Part shown: in pieces, positions 2,786 through 30,635 of the stretch
How the letters are laid out: the number at the start of each line of letters is the position of its first letter
Numbering within the stretch: the first letter of the stretch is position 1
Source: Candidatus Methylomirabilales bacterium
Lineage (GTDB): Bacteria; Methylomirabilota; Methylomirabilia; Methylomirabilales; CSP1-5
Length of the DNA stretch: 45,597 nt
NCBI GenBank assembly: GCA_046758505.1
Contig: JBHIAH010000015.1
Location: forward strand, 1-45,597
Reading direction: 5' to 3'
The notes under the pieces: model-generated
Told to the model about the DNA's origin: nothing
Databases searched by the model: none
Seen by the model: only the letters and a program-made list of their open reading frames with translations
Made by a program: the position numbers and the translations under genes

Positions 2786-3885
2786 CGGTGCAGTCGGAAG
2801 GGATCAAGCGAGAGAGCCGGCTGCTCGTCGCGAAGCAGCTCGGCCATGAGCTGCCCGGTGACCGGCGCCAGCAGGATCCCGTTGCGGTGGTGGCCTGAGG
2901 CGATGTAGCAACCCGGTGCGCCCGGCACGGCGCCGAGAAACGGCAGCTCATCGGGGGTCCAGGGGCGAAAGCCTGCCCACACCTTCAGGAGCGGCCGGGT
3001 CCCGAGGGCCGGGACGACGCCCCGCGCCGCTCCCAGTAGCCCCTCGATAGCGGCTGCCGTCACGCGCTTTTCGAATCCGGCAAATTCCGTGGTGGTCCCG
3101 ACCACCAGCTCGCCGCTCACCCGGGGGACGCAATACACCTCTCGGCTGTATAGAATGTGACGACAGAGATCCCCGTGGGTTTCCACCGAGAGCAGTTGCC
3201 CCCGGGCGGGCCGAATCGGGATCTCCCGGTCGAGGAGCTCCCCGAACATCCCCGACCAGGCCCCCGCGGCGATGACCACCTTGCCGGCGTGGTAGGTTCC
3301 GGTGGGGGACCGGACCCCGATCACCCGATCCCGATCCCGCACGAGCCCGCTGACGGGAGATCCCTCGAGGTACTGCACCCCCCGTCGGGCTCCGGCGAGC
3401 GAGAGGGCCCGAACCATGCGGGCATTCTGGACCTGGTGGTCGTCGGGGAGATATACGGCACCGCGGATTGCGGGGGTCACGTCGGGTTCGGCCTCGAGCA
3501 CCTGCTTCGAGTCCCACCGTTCGACCGTGAGTCCCCGCCCGCCCTGCTGTGCGATCATCCGCGTGCCGTGGGCCTCGTCCTCCTCGGTGAGGAGCAGATA
3601 GAGGATGCCGGAGCGGACGTACTCGATGTCGATCCCGGTCTCCGCCTTCAGCAGCTCCTGGAGAGGGGCAAACATCTGCCGGCTTTTCAGGGCAAGGTCC
3701 AGGAACGGGCCGGGGGGAAGGCCCTCGGCCTGTGGGGCCAACATTCCCGCGGCCTCGCCCGAGGCCTCGCACCCGAGTCGATCCCGTTCGAGGAGGAGAA
3801 CCTGGATTCCGGCGCGCGACAGATCGAGGGCGATCGAACACCCGATGATGCCCCCGCCGATGATCAGGACATCTGCCGTCTTCAT
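2782..3885 (-). CDS. thiO: Glycine oxidase (FAD-dependent, DAO family)
   Basis: IIGGGIIG FAD motif, EASGEAAGML, GFRPWTPD, GHHRNGILLAPVTG. Confidence 0.9.
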   Translation of the reverse strand: MKTADVLIIGGGIIGCSIALDLSRAGIQVLLLERDRLGCEASGEAAGMLAPQAEGLPPGPFLDLALKSRQMFAPLQELLKAETGIDIEYVRSGILYLLLTEEDEAHGTRMIAQQGGRGLTVERWDSKQVLEAEPDVTPAIRGAVYLPDDHQVQNARMVRALSLAGARRGVQYLEGSPVSGLVRDRDRVIGVRSPTGTYHAGKVVIAAGAWSGMFGELLDREIPIRPARGQLLSVETHGDLCRHILYSREVYCVPRVSGELVVGTTTEFAGFEKRVTAAAIEGLLGAARGVVPALGTRPLLKVWAGFRPWTPDELPFLGAVPGAPGCYIASGHHRNGILLAPVTGQLMAELLRDEQPALSLDPFRLHR

Positions 3886-25325: not shown

Positions 25326-25613
25326 ATGTTCGGCATCGGAATGCCCGAACTCATCGTCATTTTCATCGTTGCCCTCCTGGTGTTCGGTCCCAAAAAGCTT
25401 CCGGACCTGGGCAAGGCGTTAGGCCGCGGCCTGGCGGAATTCAAGCGCGCCTCCGATGATCTCAAGGAAGGGCTGACCGCCGATTTCAACCTGGAGGACG
25501 AGGACAAACCTGCGGCGAAAGCCCCCACCCCCCCCGAAACCCCCGCCCCTCCCGAGGCACCCGCGTCGGCTCCCGAGCCTCCACCGTCCACGGACGATCC
25601 GCTCCATGGCTGA
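25326..25613 (+). CDS. tatA: Twin-arginine translocase TatA/TatB family subunit
   Basis: [12 protein letters not shown]...[20 protein letters not shown]. Confidence 0.92.
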
Positions 25614-26403
25614 TGACCGGATGCCCTTCCTCTCCCACCTGGAGGAGCTCCGAAAGCGGTTGATCGTCTGTCTCATCGCCATCGGTGTCGGCTTTGGCGT
25701 CGCCTTTAACTTCTCCGAGCAGATCATGGCGTTGCTCAAGCGCATCCTCACGACCACCTTCGCCTTTCAGAAGACCTACCCCTTTGTCGTTGCCGTGTCC
25801 AAGCCTGCGCCGGAGTTGATCTTCGTCGCCCCCGCCGAAGCCTTCTGGGCCCATATCAAGATCGGGTTCCTCGTCGGCCTGCTGGTGGCCACCCCCCTGA
25901 TCCTCTTCGAGCTGTGGCGGTTCGTCTCGCCCGGCCTGCTGGAGCGGGAGCGACGCTATGCGATGCCCTTCGTCATCCTTGGGACCGTCTTCTTTTTTTT
26001 TGGCTTCGCCTTCTGCTATTTCGTCGTCCTCCCCTTCGCCATGAACTTTCTGCTCACCTACAAGACCGCGCACCTCACACCGATGCTCTCGATCGGCCTC
26101 TTTATCGATTTCACCGTCAAATTTCTCCTGGCCTTCGGCCTCATCTTTGAGCTCCCCTTGCTGATGAGCCTCGCCGCGCGGCTGGGCCTGGTCACCTCCA
26201 AGTTTCTTGCGCGGAACCGGAAATACGCCATCCTGGTGAACTTCGTCATCGCCGCCATCCTGACCCCGACCCCCGATATCTTCAACCAGACCCTCATGGC
26301 TGGCCCGCTCTGCCTCCTCTACGAGGTCGGGATCTGGGCCGTCCGGCTGATCGAGAAGACCCGGCGATCCCCGACGCAAGAGGAGGCCCGCGAGGGGGCC
26401 TGA
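25606..26403 (+). CDS. tatC: Twin-arginine translocase subunit TatC
   Basis: [20 protein letters not shown]...[17 protein letters not shown]. Confidence 0.97.
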
Positions 26404-26465
26404 CCGTGTGGTATCCCCCGATTTTCCCTTGACGCCGCCTCCCTTGTCTGTTAGGAGAAAGGCAC

Positions 26466-26527
26466 AGGTGGTGGAGTCCACCTCAGAACCACCCCGGTGA
26501 GTATCCATCGGGGGTGATGACTCCTGC
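26466..26527 (+). ncRNA. Fluoride riboswitch (crcB motif), copy 1
   Basis: P1 AGGTG(26466-70)/CACCT(26479-83); pseudoknot GGAGTC(26473-78)/GACTCC(26519-24); P2 CCCCGGTG/CATCGGGG; TGATGACTCCTGC 3' signature; GTG replaces canonical ATG after P1. Confidence 0.8.
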
Positions 26528-26561
26528 TGAAGATTTCTCTTCGGGAGGAGTTTTCTCTTTT
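26520..26561 (+). terminator. Intrinsic terminator (riboswitch expression platform 1)
   Basis: ACTCCT-G-CTGAAG...CTTCGG-G-AGGAGT then TTTCTCTTTT; left arm overlaps the aptamer pseudoknot strand. Confidence 0.8.
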
Positions 26562-26637
26562 GGGGGGGACTTTCGTTCCCTGAGCGCTCAGGGTGAGAAG
26601 ACCGGCACGCCTGGGGCCCGAGCAAGGAGGGGCCTGC

Positions 26638-27315
26638 GTGGGGCTCCGGTGTAGGCACATGGCGATGGACGAGTGTGGATCACGCACGAACCTGCTTGGC
26701 CAGCTCCGACCGGAAGTGCAGGAGCGGCTTGATGTTGAATTGCTCCGCGTCGGAGACGGGTTGGCCCTGATGCCCGCGCTGCTGCAAGTGAAGCGGAAAG
26801 GCGTGCGTGTCCGGATGATCCTGCCGCTCGAGCACGATCCCGGATTCCCGGAGCGGCTGTGGGATCTTGAACCCTTCCTGGCGGAAGGGATCGACGTCCG
26901 CTGGGGGCCGACAGTCCGTGACAGGCGGCTGGTCGCCGACGGGCGGCGCGCGTATCGACTGGATGGGGAATGGATCAAGCTGGACCCAAAGCTCGGGAGC
27001 CGTCCCCTGGCGAGCACCGATGGGACCGTGCACATCTCTTCCGGGGAGGTCCTTGATAAGCAAGAACGACGTGCGCGGTTTGACCGTCTTGACCGCATCC
27101 TGTGTGTGCGCATCTGGGCGCTGGGCGGGCGTTTTCCACTCTACTTCTCGAGCGAACGAACCCCGGTGGATGCCCTGTCGCCTGGTGACCGGATCAAAGT
27201 GCTCTTTGTGATCATCTGGGGCGGGAGCGGGCTTTTCTCGGCGTTTGCTCCCTCCGAACTGTACTACGAGGGCGTCGGTTTCAGATGGATTCGATCCGAG
27301 AACCGGCCGCCGTGA
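26638..27315 (+). CDS. Hypothetical protein, PLD-like fold lacking the HKD motif plus C-terminal beta domain
   Basis: AGGAGG 7 nt before in-frame GTG 26638; ALLQVKRKGVRVRMIL...EGIDVRW...RDRRLVADGRRAY resembles PLD-fold strands. Confidence 0.6.
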   Translation: MGLRCRHMAMDECGSRTNLLGQLRPEVQERLDVELLRVGDGLALMPALLQVKRKGVRVRMILPLEHDPGFPERLWDLEPFLAEGIDVRWGPTVRDRRLVADGRRAYRLDGEWIKLDPKLGSRPLASTDGTVHISSGEVLDKQERRARFDRLDRILCVRIWALGGRFPLYFSSERTPVDALSPGDRIKVLFVIIWGGSGLFSAFAPSELYYEGVGFRWIRSENRPP

Positions 27316-27432
27316 CGGACCGGCTGCGGTGAGAGGTGGAAATCGGTGTCAGTGAATTGGGACAAACGGTCACGCGACCCTTCCATGCGCACGGGGGTCA
27401 GCCCGTGCGCGTAGAGGTGACGATGGAAGGCG

Positions 27433-27462
27433 TTGACACCCGATGATGGACGACGATAGAAT
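27433..27462 (+). promoter_or_regulatory. Sigma70 promoter for riboswitch 2 transcript
   Basis: TTGACA - 18 bp - TAGAAT, ending about 14 nt before the aptamer. Confidence 0.75.
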
Positions 27463-27475
27463 AACGCCGCTCTCA

Positions 27476-27535
27476 GGGCGATGGAGTTCGCCGGGAACCA
27501 CCAGCTCCCATTCGGGGGCGGTTGATGACTCCTGC
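27476..27535 (+). ncRNA. Fluoride riboswitch (crcB motif), copy 2
   Basis: GGCGATGGAGTTCGCC 5' signature; P1 GGCG/CGCC; pseudoknot GGAGTT/GACTCC(27527-32); P2 GCTCCC-ATTC-GGGGGC; TGATGACTCCTGC. Confidence 0.92.
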
Positions 27536-27564
27536 TGAAGGGGAACCTTCGGGAGGAGTTTTTT
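27528..27564 (+). terminator. Intrinsic terminator (riboswitch expression platform 2)
   Basis: ACTCCT-G-CTGAAGG-GGAA-CCTTCGG-G-AGGAGT followed by TTTTT. Confidence 0.88.
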
Positions 27565-27579
27565 ATTTATAGGAGATTA

Positions 27580-28689
27580 GTGGGGGAGCCGGTGAAGCGT
27601 CTCACAAAGTTTGTCGCCTATTTTGACCTCCGGGATGCCTGTGGGGAAGCGGGGTGCCCGGTCTGTACGCTCCTCGTGAAGTTCTCCCTGCGCACCATGG
27701 ATCAGTTCATGCACGAACGGGTCACCGATCCCGGATGCCGGGAGGAGCTGTTGGCCTCGCGCGGATTTTGCAACTGGCACGCCTGGATGCTGCCGAAACT
27801 CCGGCACAGCGCCTCCGGGACGGCCGTCATTCACGAGCATCTGCTTCAAAAGGAGCTAAAGGCATTGGGAGAGCTCCGCCGCGCTCATAGAGTCCAACCC
27901 AGATGGCGGGACCTCCTTCGGCGCCTCGTGGGGAGTGGCCGGAAGCCGGGGGCGGGAAGGGGACGAAGGAAGAGGGCGGCGTGCCAGGTGTGCACCGGGG
28001 CGAGAATCTCGGACGAGATCTATCTGAAGACCTGTGTGGAGTTCATTACCGAAGTGGAATTCAGGCGAAGCTTCGAGCAGTCTGCCGGCCTCTGCCTTCC
28101 CCATCTGTATCTGGCAGCGTCCATGGAGCCGACACACCCAAACCTCCCACAGTTGCTCGAGCTCCAGACGGGGAAAATCGAAGCGGTCCGTGCGGATCTT
28201 TCCGTGTTTATTCGCAAGCAGGATTACCGGTTCATGGACGAGCCGGTTGGCAAGGAGGGGTCGGCCTGGGTGCGGTCGATCGAGCTTCTTACCGGAAAGC
28301 CGGGTGTCTTTGGGCCCGATCGGCCCCGGATCCCCCTGACACCCGAGCTGCGCGGCACGGCCTCGGCCCTCCTCCACTCCGAGGAGACAGCGTCTGAGGA
28401 CCGGGATGCACTGCAGCGCGAGAACGAGCGCCTCCGGTTCGAGAATGAAAAGCTCCGGCGGCGCATTGATGAGATCTCCAAGCTCTGGTCCGAGGAGAGC
28501 AGCCGGGCGGCGTCGCTCCACTTCCAGGTCTTCGAACTGGCCAAGGCGAAGCAGATTCTGGAGTTCAACCTGGCCGGGGCGCAGGGCGAAGGCAAAGGGT
28601 GGGAGGGGGTCGTCTCCCGGCTGCGCGAAGAGATCGCCGCCCTTCAAGAGGAGCTCGCGCAGTTCAAAGAGCGCTCCTCGGCGGAGTAG
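27580..28689 (+). CDS. DUF6062-like Cys/His protein with C-terminal coiled coil
   Basis: RBS AGGAG; duplicated CPVC...GFCNWH and CQVC...GLCLPH units, FIRKQDYRF...W.RSIELL.G; heptad-rich last ~100 aa. Confidence 0.8.
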   Translation: MGEPVKRLTKFVAYFDLRDACGEAGCPVCTLLVKFSLRTMDQFMHERVTDPGCREELLASRGFCNWHAWMLPKLRHSASGTAVIHEHLLQKELKALGELRRAHRVQPRWRDLLRRLVGSGRKPGAGRGRRKRAACQVCTGARISDEIYLKTCVEFITEVEFRRSFEQSAGLCLPHLYLAASMEPTHPNLPQLLELQTGKIEAVRADLSVFIRKQDYRFMDEPVGKEGSAWVRSIELLTGKPGVFGPDRPRIPLTPELRGTASALLHSEETASEDRDALQRENERLRFENEKLRRRIDEISKLWSEESSRAASLHFQVFELAKAKQILEFNLAGAQGEGKGWEGVVSRLREEIAALQEELAQFKERSSAE

Positions 28690-28745
28690 GTGCGAGAGAT
28701 GCATGCCGGCACGGCATGTTGCAAGGGGACGGGATGGACGAGCGG

Positions 28746-29699
28746 CTAGACGAGTTCGAGCATCCGGTGGATGGCGGTCCGGGCCCGGGCGGCGATACCT
28801 TCCGGCACCTTCACCTGAAAGACCATCTCCTGCAGCGAGCGCAGCACCTTCTCGAGGGTGATCCGCTTCATGTACTCGCAGACCGCGTCCTCTTTGAGGG
28901 GGACAAAGGCCTTGTTGGGGTTGCCCTGCTGCAAGGGATACAGGATGCCGGTCTCGGTGGCCACGATGAACTTCTGCGCGGAGGAAGCTGCGCTGCGGCG
29001 GATCATCCCGCTCGTGGAGAGGATGTGAATCCTGTCCTGGAGACCGGGCGCCTCCCGGGCAAAGGCGATGCAGTTCGTGGTGCAGCCGCACTCGGGGTGG
29101 ATAAAGATCTCCTCGGCATCCGGATGAAGGCGCAGGGATTCCTCAAAGTCTCCGGGACGGATCCCGGCGTGCACGTGGCACTCCCCGGGCCAGACGCGGA
29201 TGTTCGTTCGGCCGCTCACCTGGGCGACGTAATCGCCCAGGTAGAGGTCGGGGAGGAAAAGAATCTCGCGATCGGGGGGGATGGCCTGGATGACCTTCGC
29301 GGCATTCGCCGAGGTGCAGCAGTAGTCGCTCTCGGCCTTCACCTCTGCGGTGGTGTTCACGTACGACACCACGACCGCTGCCGGGTGCTCCGCCTTCCAC
29401 TGCCGAAGTTCCTCGGCCGTAATACTGGCGGCCAGGGAGCAGCCCGCCTCGAGATCGGGAAGGAGGACCGTCTTGTCGGGACAGAGAATTGAGGCGGTCT
29501 CGGCCATGAAGTGGACGCCACAAAAGACGATGACGTCGGCATTCGTCTGGGCTGCGGCCTGGGAGAGGCCAAGGGAATCGCCGGTGAAGTCCGCGACATC
29601 CTGGACCTCGGGGACCTGGTAGTTGTGGGCCAGGATGACCGCCTTGGACGCCTCCTTTAATCGGAGGATCTCCCGGCTGACGTCGGTCTGAACTGCCAT
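28746..29699 (-). CDS. nadA: Quinolinate synthase
   Basis: ILAHNYQ, FCGVHFMAETA, AGCSLA, YVNT, CCTSANA, CHVH, HPEC, CEYMK. Confidence 0.98.
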   Translation of the reverse strand: MAVQTDVSREILRLKEASKAVILAHNYQVPEVQDVADFTGDSLGLSQAAAQTNADVIVFCGVHFMAETASILCPDKTVLLPDLEAGCSLAASITAEELRQWKAEHPAAVVVSYVNTTAEVKAESDYCCTSANAAKVIQAIPPDREILFLPDLYLGDYVAQVSGRTNIRVWPGECHVHAGIRPGDFEESLRLHPDAEEIFIHPECGCTTNCIAFAREAPGLQDRIHILSTSGMIRRSAASSAQKFIVATETGILYPLQQGNPNKAFVPLKEDAVCEYMKRITLEKVLRSLQEMVFQVKVPEGIAARARTAIHRMLELV

Positions 29700-29730
29700 T
29701 CTCTTCCCCCCGGGACGACTTTCAGTTATT

Positions 29731-29759
29731 ATGCTAAGGGAATTACCGGGCGAGGTCAA
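29731..29759 (-). promoter_or_regulatory. Sigma70-like promoter of nadA
   Basis: Minus strand TTGACC - 17 bp - TAGCAT. Confidence 0.5.
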
Positions 29760-29765
29760 GTGCGA

Positions 29766-30635
29766 ATGCCTCAAGGCCAATCAGCTACCGTCCCTCTGCA
29801 GGTCCGCCGCTTGGTCGAGCGTGCCCTGGAAGAGGATCTGGCATCCGGGGACCCCACGACGGAGGCCCTGATCACCGATCAGGACCGGGGGAGAGCAGAG
29901 GCCGTGGTCCGGGCACCGGGCGTGCTGGCCGGGACGTGGGTCTTCGGACTCGTCTTCACCACCGTCGACCCCCGGCTCGAGGTTCAGCCGCTGCGCCCGG
30001 AGGGGCATCACCTGACCCCAGGAGAGGGGGTGGCTACCGTGACCGGGTCCTTGGCCAGTATCCTCAGGGGCGAGCGGGTAGCCCTGAACTTCCTGCAGCG
30101 GCTGTCCGGCATCGCTACCGGGACCGCTCGGTTCGTGGCGGCGGTGGCTGGCCTGCCCGTTCGGATCGTGGATACGCGGAAGACCGTCCCGGGCATGCGG
30201 TGGCTCGAAAAGTATGCCGTCCGGATGGGCGGGGGGTTCAACCACCGGATGAACCTGAGCGACGGCATCCTGGTGAAAGACAACCACCTGGTCGTGGTCA
30301 AGGCCCGGGGCGAATCCTTCAAGGCCATGGTGGCTCGACTCCGGGAATGCACGAGTCACCTGCTGAGGGTCCAGGTGGAGGTTGAGACTCTAGACGAGGC
30401 GACCGAGGCGGCAGAGGCGGGGGTGGATGCGCTGTTGCTGGATCAGATGGCGCTCGAGCAGATGGCCGAGGTGGTCCGCCGATACAAGGGGAGGGTGCTC
30501 ATCGAGGCGTCAGGGGGGATCACGCTGGACACCGTGCGACGCGTCGCCGAGACCGGGGTGGACTTCATCTCCGTGGGGGCCCTTACCCACTCCGCTCAGG
30601 CCCTCGACATCAGCCTCGAGGTCCAACCCGCCTAG
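29766..30635 (+). CDS. nadC: Nicotinate-nucleotide pyrophosphorylase (carboxylating)
   Basis: ALEED...GD.TT, ERVALNFLQRLSGIAT, DTRKT.PG, NHR..LSD.ILVKDNH, EASGGI, ISVGALTHS. Confidence 0.98.
   Translation: MPQGQSATVPLQVRRLVERALEEDLASGDPTTEALITDQDRGRAEAVVRAPGVLAGTWVFGLVFTTVDPRLEVQPLRPEGHHLTPGEGVATVTGSLASILRGERVALNFLQRLSGIATGTARFVAAVAGLPVRIVDTRKTVPGMRWLEKYAVRMGGGFNHRMNLSDGILVKDNHLVVVKARGESFKAMVARLRECTSHLLRVQVEVETLDEATEAAEAGVDALLLDQMALEQMAEVVRRYKGRVLIEASGGITLDTVRRVAETGVDFISVGALTHSAQALDISLEVQPA

Follow-up and report, generated by a model that had tools for sequence, protein, structure and literature searches.

Positions 1 to 45,597 of contig JBHIAH010000015.1 from a Candidatus Methylomirabilales bacterium (assembly GCA_046758505.1), referred to here as the window, contain two fluoride riboswitches of the crcB motif (Rfam family RF01734) in a short segment between tatC and nadA. 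Each riboswitch has its own terminator and is followed by a gene for a predicted soluble protein. The first gene, ORF1, belongs to a rare family without a name, and the second, ORF2, is a member of the Pfam family DUF6062 (PF19538), for which no function is described. The best overall explanation is, very probably, that the segment represents two fluoride-gated transcription units within a variable fluoride-stress regulon of the phylum Methylomirabilota. The identity of the two RNAs, the architecture of their expression platforms and the linkage of RNA and gene in other genomes are established with high confidence. An initial annotation had described two such aptamers, each controlling an uncharacterised gene that does not encode a transporter. 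Its observations were confirmed in all parts, and its interpretation as a fluoride-response system is supported, every testable part having been upheld, with the adjustments noted below.

When the complete window was scanned with the covariance models of Rfam, two RF01734 matches were returned, both of which span the complete model (positions 1–64 of 64) and exceed its gathering score of 34 bits (Table 1). The narrower intervals first proposed for the aptamers (26466–26527 and 27476–27535) fall within these matches. The sole other Rfam match in the window is a tRNA, and just these two riboswitches are found in the genome as a whole (2.99 Mb in 149 contigs, 96.8% complete), both with the Rfam model and with a custom model, R1. 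Four DNA data sets listed for this sequence carry the label hydrothermal vent metagenome and may have given rise to the assembly. As noted initially, the pseudoknot strand of each aptamer doubles as the left arm of a terminator: the two hairpins (26519–26552 and 27527–27560) are 34 nt each, and their 5′ arms start with ACUCCUG. Hairpin 1 is followed by TTTTCTCTTTT and hairpin 2 by TTTTTATTT. Folded alone, hairpin 1 reaches -24.2 kcal/mol (z -3.07 versus shuffles) and hairpin 2 -23.9 kcal/mol (z -4.84), with none of 200 shuffled sequences folding equally well in the latter case.

The strong sigma-70 promoter claimed for the second copy was recovered as the sole promoter-like site that a consensus scan finds within 26300–28900, a stretch in which shuffled sequences average 0.3 sites. 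For unit 1, the -35 element TTGACG (26429–26434) is paired with a weak -10 element that failed the same scan; of nine leaders, eight align at this position and keep the core TTGAC, seven of them having TTGACT or TTGACA. Window copy 2 has its own TTGACA, located in another column of the alignment of nine leaders. Both genes are preceded by their own ribosome-binding site, which agrees with the initial annotation: AAGGAGG is followed by GTG 26638 in ORF1, and AGGAG (27571–27575) by GTG 27580 in ORF2, where gene callers choose GTG 27592 (365 aa). The inverted repeat upstream of promoter 2 forms its 9-bp stem in the fold, with a regional z of only -1.9, and has no U-tract. A recent duplication of copy 1 to give copy 2 was considered, with 49 nt of the expression platform being 82% identical, and was rejected, as the platform is common to all nine leaders of the clade and the P1 and P3 stems differ between the copies.

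Table 1. Features of the segment between tatC and nadA and of its flanks (window coordinates).
Feature	Position	Strand	Description
tatC	25606..26403	+	Upstream flank of the module; Pfam TatC 231.9 bits
Promoter-like element, unit 1	26429..26457	+	TTGACG -35, 17-nt spacer, weak TAGGAG -10; read from the sequence, putative assignment
Fluoride riboswitch aptamer 1	26458..26533	+	RF01734 38.9 bits; subtype with G-C closing the P1 loop; helices and pseudoknot supported by covariation
Intrinsic terminator 1	26519..26563	+	Hairpin and U-tract; 5′ arm is the aptamer pseudoknot strand; also positive in a scan for terminator-like sites
ORF1	26638..27315	+	Soluble protein of 225 aa from a rare family without a name; N-terminal half putatively a degenerate PLD-like domain; ribosome-binding site AAGGAGG at 26623–26629
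Imperfect inverted repeat	27375..27422	+	Located after the stop of ORF1 and ahead of promoter 2; core stem of 9 bp, G+C
Sigma-70-type promoter, unit 2	27433..27462	+	TTGACA-18-TAGAAT, 11/12 consensus matches
Fluoride riboswitch aptamer 2, canonical type	27468..27541	+	RF01734 43.4 bits
Intrinsic terminator 2	27527..27569	+	Hairpin and U-tract; 5′ arm is the pseudoknot strand
ORF2 (DUF6062)	27580..28689	+	369 aa from GTG 27580; two CxxC...CxxH motifs, C-terminal helix of ~100 residues
nadA	28746..29780	-	Convergent downstream flank; Pfam NadA 378.1 bits

To evaluate the secondary structure, the two copies of the window were aligned with 47 from the phylum sample and seven from metagenomic loci, 56 in all. 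Paired cells amount to 96.8%, and changes on both sides occur in 10 of the 16 pairs. None of 500 shuffles attains the observed value on any of five measures, and when the 3′ partners are slid out of register, pairing collapses to 41–58%. Covariation supports the P1 and P3 helices as well as the pseudoknot, in which GGAGU of the P1 loop pairs with ACUCC of the 3′ tail; this pseudoknot is 100% paired across the alignment, and one of its positions swaps A-U for G-C in 24 sequences. Judged by their sequences, both RNAs are genuine members of RF01734 with an expression platform laid out as an ON switch, and we infer that they bind fluoride and that both genes are fluoride-induced.

The linkage between RNA and gene was evaluated in homologues, as had been suggested in the initial annotation. 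An RF01734 match (31.3–43.7 bits) lies directly upstream of the ORF1 homologue in all nine loci, i.e., eight metagenomic loci retrieved with the family profile and one genome, G016. DUF6062 follows ORF1 in G016 and in each of the seven metagenomic loci that extend past ORF1, including L085, where ORF1 is 31% identical, and in L078 the ORF1 stop and the DUF6062 start overlap (GTGA). A riboswitch between the two genes is found in none of these relatives; the 264-nt spacer, which carries a promoter, an aptamer and a terminator of its own, is peculiar to the window. For DUF6062, a scan of one genome per species gave 57 loci, and model R1 has 35 matches in 31 of these, all on the strand of the gene and all but one (34 of 35) upstream. 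R1 was partly built from the same genomes, hence a cross-check with Rfam. Of the 30 loci for which the record titles name other lineages (Thermodesulfobacteriota, Syntrophaceae, Nitrospinota, Verrucomicrobiia, Acidiferrales, Binatia, Chthonomonadales and unclassified) or none, 14 have an RF01734 match of at least 34 bits upstream on the same strand. A Syntrophaceae metagenome-assembled genome (MAG; L099) has an RF02005 match of 186 bits at 1905–2129, a domain of a group II intron, between the riboswitch (170–231) and DUF6062 (3001–3705).

We propose that the 2.3-kb tatC–nadA segment would operate as two independent fluoride-gated transcription units, each composed of promoter, aptamer, terminator and gene. 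When fluoride is absent, the terminator should form and transcription halt in the leader; when fluoride is bound, the pseudoknot would occupy the ACUCC strand, which blocks the terminator and allows transcription of the gene. An ON-switch mechanism is expected because the anatomy of terminator and pseudoknot matches the published description of the class. Unit 1 would provide ORF1, and unit 2 DUF6062, with its predicted all-helical domain, two Cys3His sites and coiled-coil tail. Transcripts from promoter 1 may read through ORF1 to terminator 2, in which case DUF6062 would be gated twice on these transcripts and once on those from promoter 2. Both proteins would act in the cytoplasm, limiting fluoride or acid damage without ion export. 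DUF6062 would be a scaffold or regulator that binds metal and oligomerises, and ORF1 would assist it as an accessory protein. This functional assignment for the two proteins is tentative, a possible rather than an expected outcome.

Several observations weigh against the proposal. The link between riboswitch and DUF6062 is frequent, not obligate: 34 of the 50 riboswitch regions analysed in the phylum (see below) are without DUF6062, and an RF01734 match is missing from 16 of the 30 DUF6062 loci of other lineages, some of which are cut short upstream. Six of the nine riboswitches proximal to ORF1 score 31.3–33.3 bits, which is just below the Rfam threshold, and share a G-C substitution at the base of the P1 loop, so that this subtype may differ in its ligand response. 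In G016, the only other module-bearing genome of the genus (locus L039, G016:C8, 2600–4370, reverse strand), each module gene is present as two tblastn segments and looks damaged, and DUF6062 lacks about 36 residues including the second CxxC; this could be due to decay or to an error in the MAG assembly. As for the proteins, structural comparisons lend the functional model no support: the AlphaFold2 model of ORF1 is poor (pLDDT 46.3), and a wide structure search with ORF2 using VIA-align gave coiled coils alone (Z ≤ 7.2), matching residues 260–365. Finally, the genome has two CLC genes, one of which is canonical with CBS domains, whereas the other, on contig C19, is 39–41% identical to a CLC adjoining a riboswitch-controlled exchanger in G090. 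Because of this resemblance, the genome may yet encode a fluoride exporter, with the C19 CLC as a candidate, although its alignment at the motifs diagnostic of CLC-F is ambiguous.

The genes controlled by fluoride riboswitches in Methylomirabilota were surveyed in 151 genomes. RF01734 is present in 41 of these at E ≤ 0.001 (37 above the cut-off; 53 matches in total); the tallies include one match from G028, which was left out of further analysis, and a weak match in G018 (22.3 bits) is probably false. Downstream DNA was taken for 50 other matches, two of the regions being cut by contig ends and several having no recognisable family. ORFs were called with a crude filter on third-position G+C, Pfam was run on 128 of the 234 ORFs (start within 3 kb, at least 90 aa), and tblastn searches with both window proteins were added. 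Within 3 kb downstream and on the same strand, Na_H_Exchanger occurs in 28 of the 50 regions, DUF6062 in 16 (with one further weak tblastn match in L041), Usp in 11, and CrcB and a dynamin-family GTPase in 6 each. Further families are MFS transporters, DUF190, a CLC, TPR proteins and Pup. A recurrent operon order starts with DUF6062, followed by a Na+/H+ exchanger, Usp and sometimes CrcB. In the form of HF, fluoride passes into the cell and lowers the cytoplasmic pH, which fits the presence of exchanger, Usp and exporters. In terms of gene context, ORF1 and DUF6062 are accessory members of a larger, variable fluoride regulon and not a stand-alone pair everywhere. The two-protein fluoride module put forward initially is thus upheld with respect to linkage, but not as a self-contained system in every genome, since most relatives co-transcribe these proteins with a Na+/H+ exchanger, CrcB or MFS transporters.

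The composition of these operons also allows a different explanation, in which the co-transcribed CPA1-type Na+/H+ exchanger counters acidification of the cytoplasm by HF and has DUF6062 as a cytoplasmic subunit with a regulatory or accessory role, and the genes in the window are a remnant left after loss of the exchanger. Besides the frequency of Na_H_Exchanger downstream of the riboswitches, this is favoured by its position directly after DUF6062 in L036, L040, L043, L049, L051, L065, L067, L072, L077 and L084, and by the damaged appearance of the module genes in G016. In the window, however, both genes are intact and under purifying selection, and each has an intact riboswitch, while tblastn with two riboswitch-type exchangers gives no match in this genome at E ≤ 0.01. 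DUF6062 is also found in riboswitch operons that are free of exchangers (L045, L053, L054, L055 and L062). We regard a role confined to the exchanger as doubtful, and prefer the two fluoride-gated units within a variable regulon.

Other members of the phylum regulon show additional variation. The dynamin-family GTPase (Dynamin_N, 78–94 bits) is present in L042, L048, L049 (reverse strand), L054, L069 and L077, often beside DUF6062, and its presence suggests that the fluoride response may have a membrane-remodelling arm. A Pup-like protein (PF05639, 76.9 bits) is encoded between riboswitch and DUF6062 at L065:8789–9118 (reverse strand); ORFs of 66 aa hold the same position at L049:722–922 and L067:771–971, and a Pup-ligase fragment follows DUF6062 in L053. 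The latter locus (G012:C6:28000–42400) forms a dense fluoride island with four fluoride riboswitches in 4.3 kb, which would gate DUF6062, a Na+/H+ exchanger, an MFS gene and, on the opposite strand, an uncharacterised ORF of 197 aa with genes for an FAA hydrolase and a phosphoglycerate mutase behind it. At L037:872–2465 (G066:C84), two near-identical riboswitches are separated by 1.5 kb in which no ORF is convincing, and a VTT/DedA-family gene and crcB follow. TPR genes are located after a riboswitch in L036 and ahead of the MFS gene in L084. A gene for a membrane H+-pyrophosphatase lies just downstream of the module at L078:5841–8129 and L084:7631–8636; enzymes of the pyrophosphatase class are among the classical targets of fluoride.

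A divergent form of the riboswitch was observed in loci titled NC10 or Methylomirabil*, in which P1 is shortened and GGGUCCCC is found in place of the AACC linker, with pseudoknot and terminator kept. The copies are L042:724–787, L043:820–883, L090:1108–1171, L091:2835–2898, L092:2780–2843, L093:1172–1235, L094:1173–1236, L095:743–809, L096:2600–2663 and L100:1095–1159. The Rfam model gives 25.6 bits for the L042 copy and 23.5 bits for the L043 copy. The other eight have no Rfam match above 34 and score 40.5–46.6 bits with model R1, though it was built without them. The divergent riboswitches precede operons of the type dynamin–DUF6062–exchanger or DUF6062–exchanger.

Neither protein of the window appears to be an exporter. 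The initial annotation had stated that neither ORF encodes Fluc or CLC-F and that no exporter is present in the window, and this was borne out: both PF02537 and PF00654 are unmatched in ORF1 and ORF2, and the Kyte–Doolittle maxima over 19 residues are 1.78 and 0.99, respectively, compared with 2.43 for TatC and 2.47 for TrkH. CrcB was found neither in the window nor in the 96.8%-complete genome, by Pfam profile or by tblastn with four CrcB proteins from relatives (E ≤ 0.01), with the reservation that absence from a MAG is not proof. Similarly, tblastn with the riboswitch-type exchanger, dynamin, DUF190, MFS and Pup gave no match in this genome at E ≤ 0.01. A far-reaching version of the functional model would be that ORF1 and DUF6062 provide exporter-independent fluoride survival, as an induced cytoplasmic metalloprotein complex that protects or repairs targets, or sequesters fluoride or metal–fluoride species, and that would be sufficient without Fluc/CrcB or a recognisable CLC-F. 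We consider this version unlikely.

ORF2 matches PF19538 with 82.9 bits (cut-off 27) over profile positions 17–239 of 243. The description of both genes as uncharacterised therefore holds, with the qualification that ORF2 belongs to a catalogued family and is not unknown, whereas ORF1 is indeed unnamed. In an alignment of 42 homologues (P0015 numbering), Cys60, His63, Cys131, Cys134, Cys168 and His171 are invariant, and Cys22 and Cys25 are near-invariant; the sequence of the C-terminal tail is itself conserved. The presence of two CxxC...CxxH motifs as a mark of the family, seen also in ORF2, is taken from this alignment and not from a published definition. The AlphaFold2 model of ORF2 (pLDDT 87.2) shows an all-helical domain of ~245 residues followed by a single helix of ~100 residues, and the Cys and His residues are positioned at helix starts in the order CxxC, about 35 residues, CxxH. 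No transporter family matches ORF2. A Foldseek search of the PDB with the full model gave nothing at E ≤ 0.001 (best 0.37), the DUF6062 profile matched only designed or natural coiled coils among PDB sequences, and a search of the ESM Atlas with residues 1–245, leaving out PF19538, gave no usable match.

The Cys3His sites of DUF6062 most likely bind zinc. Alternatively, the Cys3His pairs could bind pH- or redox-labile iron–sulfur clusters that sense or repair cofactor damage, in analogy to mitoNEET-type proteins, whose labile [2Fe-2S] cluster has 3Cys-1His ligation. The two conserved motifs with invariant Cys and His residues would be consistent with this, but the motif spacing is equally compatible with structural zinc sites, and no sequence or fold similarity to any iron–sulfur family was found. 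An iron–sulfur protein is improbable, and we retain DUF6062 as a candidate zinc-binding scaffold or regulator.

The riboswitch ahead of ORF1 deviates from the canonical type by a change from A-U to G-C at the base of the P1 loop, seen in 8 of the 56 aligned copies, among them window copy 1 and copies ahead of ORF1 homologues. This subtype scores lower with Rfam, only three of the nine ORF1-proximal riboswitches reaching at least 34 bits, and it could be envisaged that it answers another ligand and places ORF1 in a different response. The recurrence of the change and the sub-threshold scores of the remaining six copies would be in line with a second ligand. The change is compensatory, though, so that the pair is maintained, and the pseudoknot and other invariant nucleotides are retained; in addition, window copy 1 is above the threshold, and the same operons hold DUF6062, which is tied to canonical copies elsewhere. 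Another ligand is very improbable, and fluoride is taken as the expected signal for both units.

ORF1 belongs to a very rare family, with 14 clusters in a collection of 5.8 billion proteins and 12 representatives (E ≤ 0.001) in 1.84 billion proteins. Within the order, a protein search found carriers in 2 of 66 genomes, and within the phylum a profile search found 2 in 251. No Pfam or NCBIfam family matches above threshold, nor does any transporter family. A weak similarity to PLDc_2 (15 bits, E 0.022, residues 58–105) is below the Pfam cut-off of 27. HxK(x)4D, the HKD motif, is the catalytic motif of the PLD superfamily; at this position ORF1 has RDRRLVAD, and the family varies at the His (Arg, Phe, Ser or His) and Lys (Arg, Glu, Gly or Ala), with only the Asp invariant. 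From these substitutions, any PLD-like domain in ORF1 is predicted to be catalytically dead. ESM Atlas neighbours selected by features are all PLDc_2 clusters with scores of ~0.8, which is at chance level, and those selected by structure are PLDc_2 or TrmB-type proteins (TM 0.42–0.51); both sets serve as leads only. ORF1 may resemble PLD-like domains and the TrmB-type PLD-like effector-binding domain through a weak N-terminal match and Atlas leads, but differs from them by the score below cut-off, the degenerate HKD position and a conserved C-terminal half without counterpart. The AlphaFold2 model, built from 14 sequences, is too poor for a fold search, and a profile search of PDB sequences gave a best E of 1.8.

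The alignment of the same number of sequences has 49 invariant columns, amino-acid identity across 13 clusters is 52–74%, and distant homologues (18–30% identity) retain a C-terminal motif. Compared with L078, nucleotide differences at codon positions 1, 2 and 3 are 47, 49 and 117, and the pattern is similar against four other loci; because the differences concentrate at third codon positions, ORF1 is taken to be protein-coding. That the first riboswitch and the ORF1 region instead form an extended leader with structure, or are what decay has left of a gene, with DUF6062 alone being of importance, as might be supposed from the lack of a Pfam or NCBIfam match, the poor model and the rarity of the family, is hardly credible given this conservation, the codon-position bias, the retained C-terminal motif and the good ribosome-binding site.

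The flanking genes were assigned initially as tatC and nadA, and both assignments hold (Table 1). DUF6062 is present in 2 of the 14 genomes of the genus, and the same two carry ORF1. In the module-free genus-mates, tatC directly faces the convergent nadA in five of five cases, with a gap of roughly 70–230 nt, and because of this adjacency the module is, by comparison of gene order, an indel. The suggestion that it may be an insertion is supported only to that extent, as insertion and repeated loss in the relatives cannot be told apart. The module is also located right after tatC in G016, L078, L082 and L083, where the downstream neighbours differ (a HEAT/zinc-ribbon gene or the H+-pyrophosphatase gene). 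Direct repeats flanking the module, which would mark a mobile element, were not found, and its G+C content is 0.626 versus 0.639 for the window. In L082 (352–1362) and L083 (2761–3790), a second riboswitch (44.1 and 42.2 bits, respectively) is found right after tatC, ~1 kb upstream of the ORF1 riboswitch, and two ORFs lie between the riboswitches of L082, one that belongs to an unknown family and another, of 144 aa, that is TPR-like.

The module shares with transcriptional fluoride riboswitches of the crcB motif the aptamer family, P1, P3, the pseudoknot and a terminator that overlaps the 3′ part of the aptamer. In the original description of the motif, the overlap with terminators was taken to mean that ligand binding should raise expression, and the associated genes that it mentions include mutS and genes for K+/Cl- transport and formate hydrogen lyase (Weinberg 2010, PMC2864571, accessible text). 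The most common genes are crcB and eriC-F (PMC5533749), and the accessible parts of PMC5533749, PMC11777429, PMC5473149 and PMC2864571 name exporters, fluoride-inhibited enzymes, Usp and few others. Unlike these, the window genes are neither exporters nor any of the fluoride-sensitive enzymes named in the parts of PMC5533749 and PMC2864571 considered here. A preprint on a divergent crcB-linked RNA (10.64898/2026.10.21.760802) has, in its accessible part, no bearing on ORF1 or DUF6062. The closest parallel in organisation is the FRM operon of Enterobacter cloacae (ppaC-uspA-eno-gpmA-crcB-orf5249), which is located behind one fluoride riboswitch on a variable genomic island (PMC5533749, accessible text). 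Both are riboswitch-gated fluoride islands at variable locations that include non-transporters, such as Usp in the FRM operon. As described there, however, the latter has CrcB together with known fluoride-inhibited enzymes, whereas the window has two separate units, proteins of unknown function and no exporter that could be found.

In the literature library searched, no paper names DUF6062, although an earlier listing within a "hypothetical" class may exist, and none joins the terms fluoride riboswitch and dynamin. It appears that the link of DUF6062 and ORF1 to fluoride riboswitches is not in print. The RNA class is known and the effector genes are uncharacterised; what sets the window apart is the family of ORF1, the presence of a second riboswitch in the spacer between the genes, and a genome whose switches are accompanied by no known fluoride exporter.

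Current explanations of fluoride resistance invoke two families of exporters, along with raised production of a few enzymes that fluoride inhibits. A riboswitch directly marks genes needed by the cell when its ligand rises, and here it points to two families of no known function, one of which (DUF6062) recurs behind RF01734 in lineages of several phyla, and the other (ORF1) has been seen only behind RF01734. The question of function is sharpened by the fact that the only two fluoride riboswitches of this genome govern just these soluble proteins, with CrcB undetected. Determining what ORF1 and DUF6062 do could reveal what it is in the cytoplasm that fluoride damages, and by what means cells survive when export is absent or is not their only defence, which would be of relevance for fluoride toxicity, for life in fluoride-rich waters and for the engineering of organisms that release fluoride from fluorinated compounds. 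The two riboswitch-driven soluble proteins thereby direct attention to an arm of the response to fluoride stress that is as yet unstudied.

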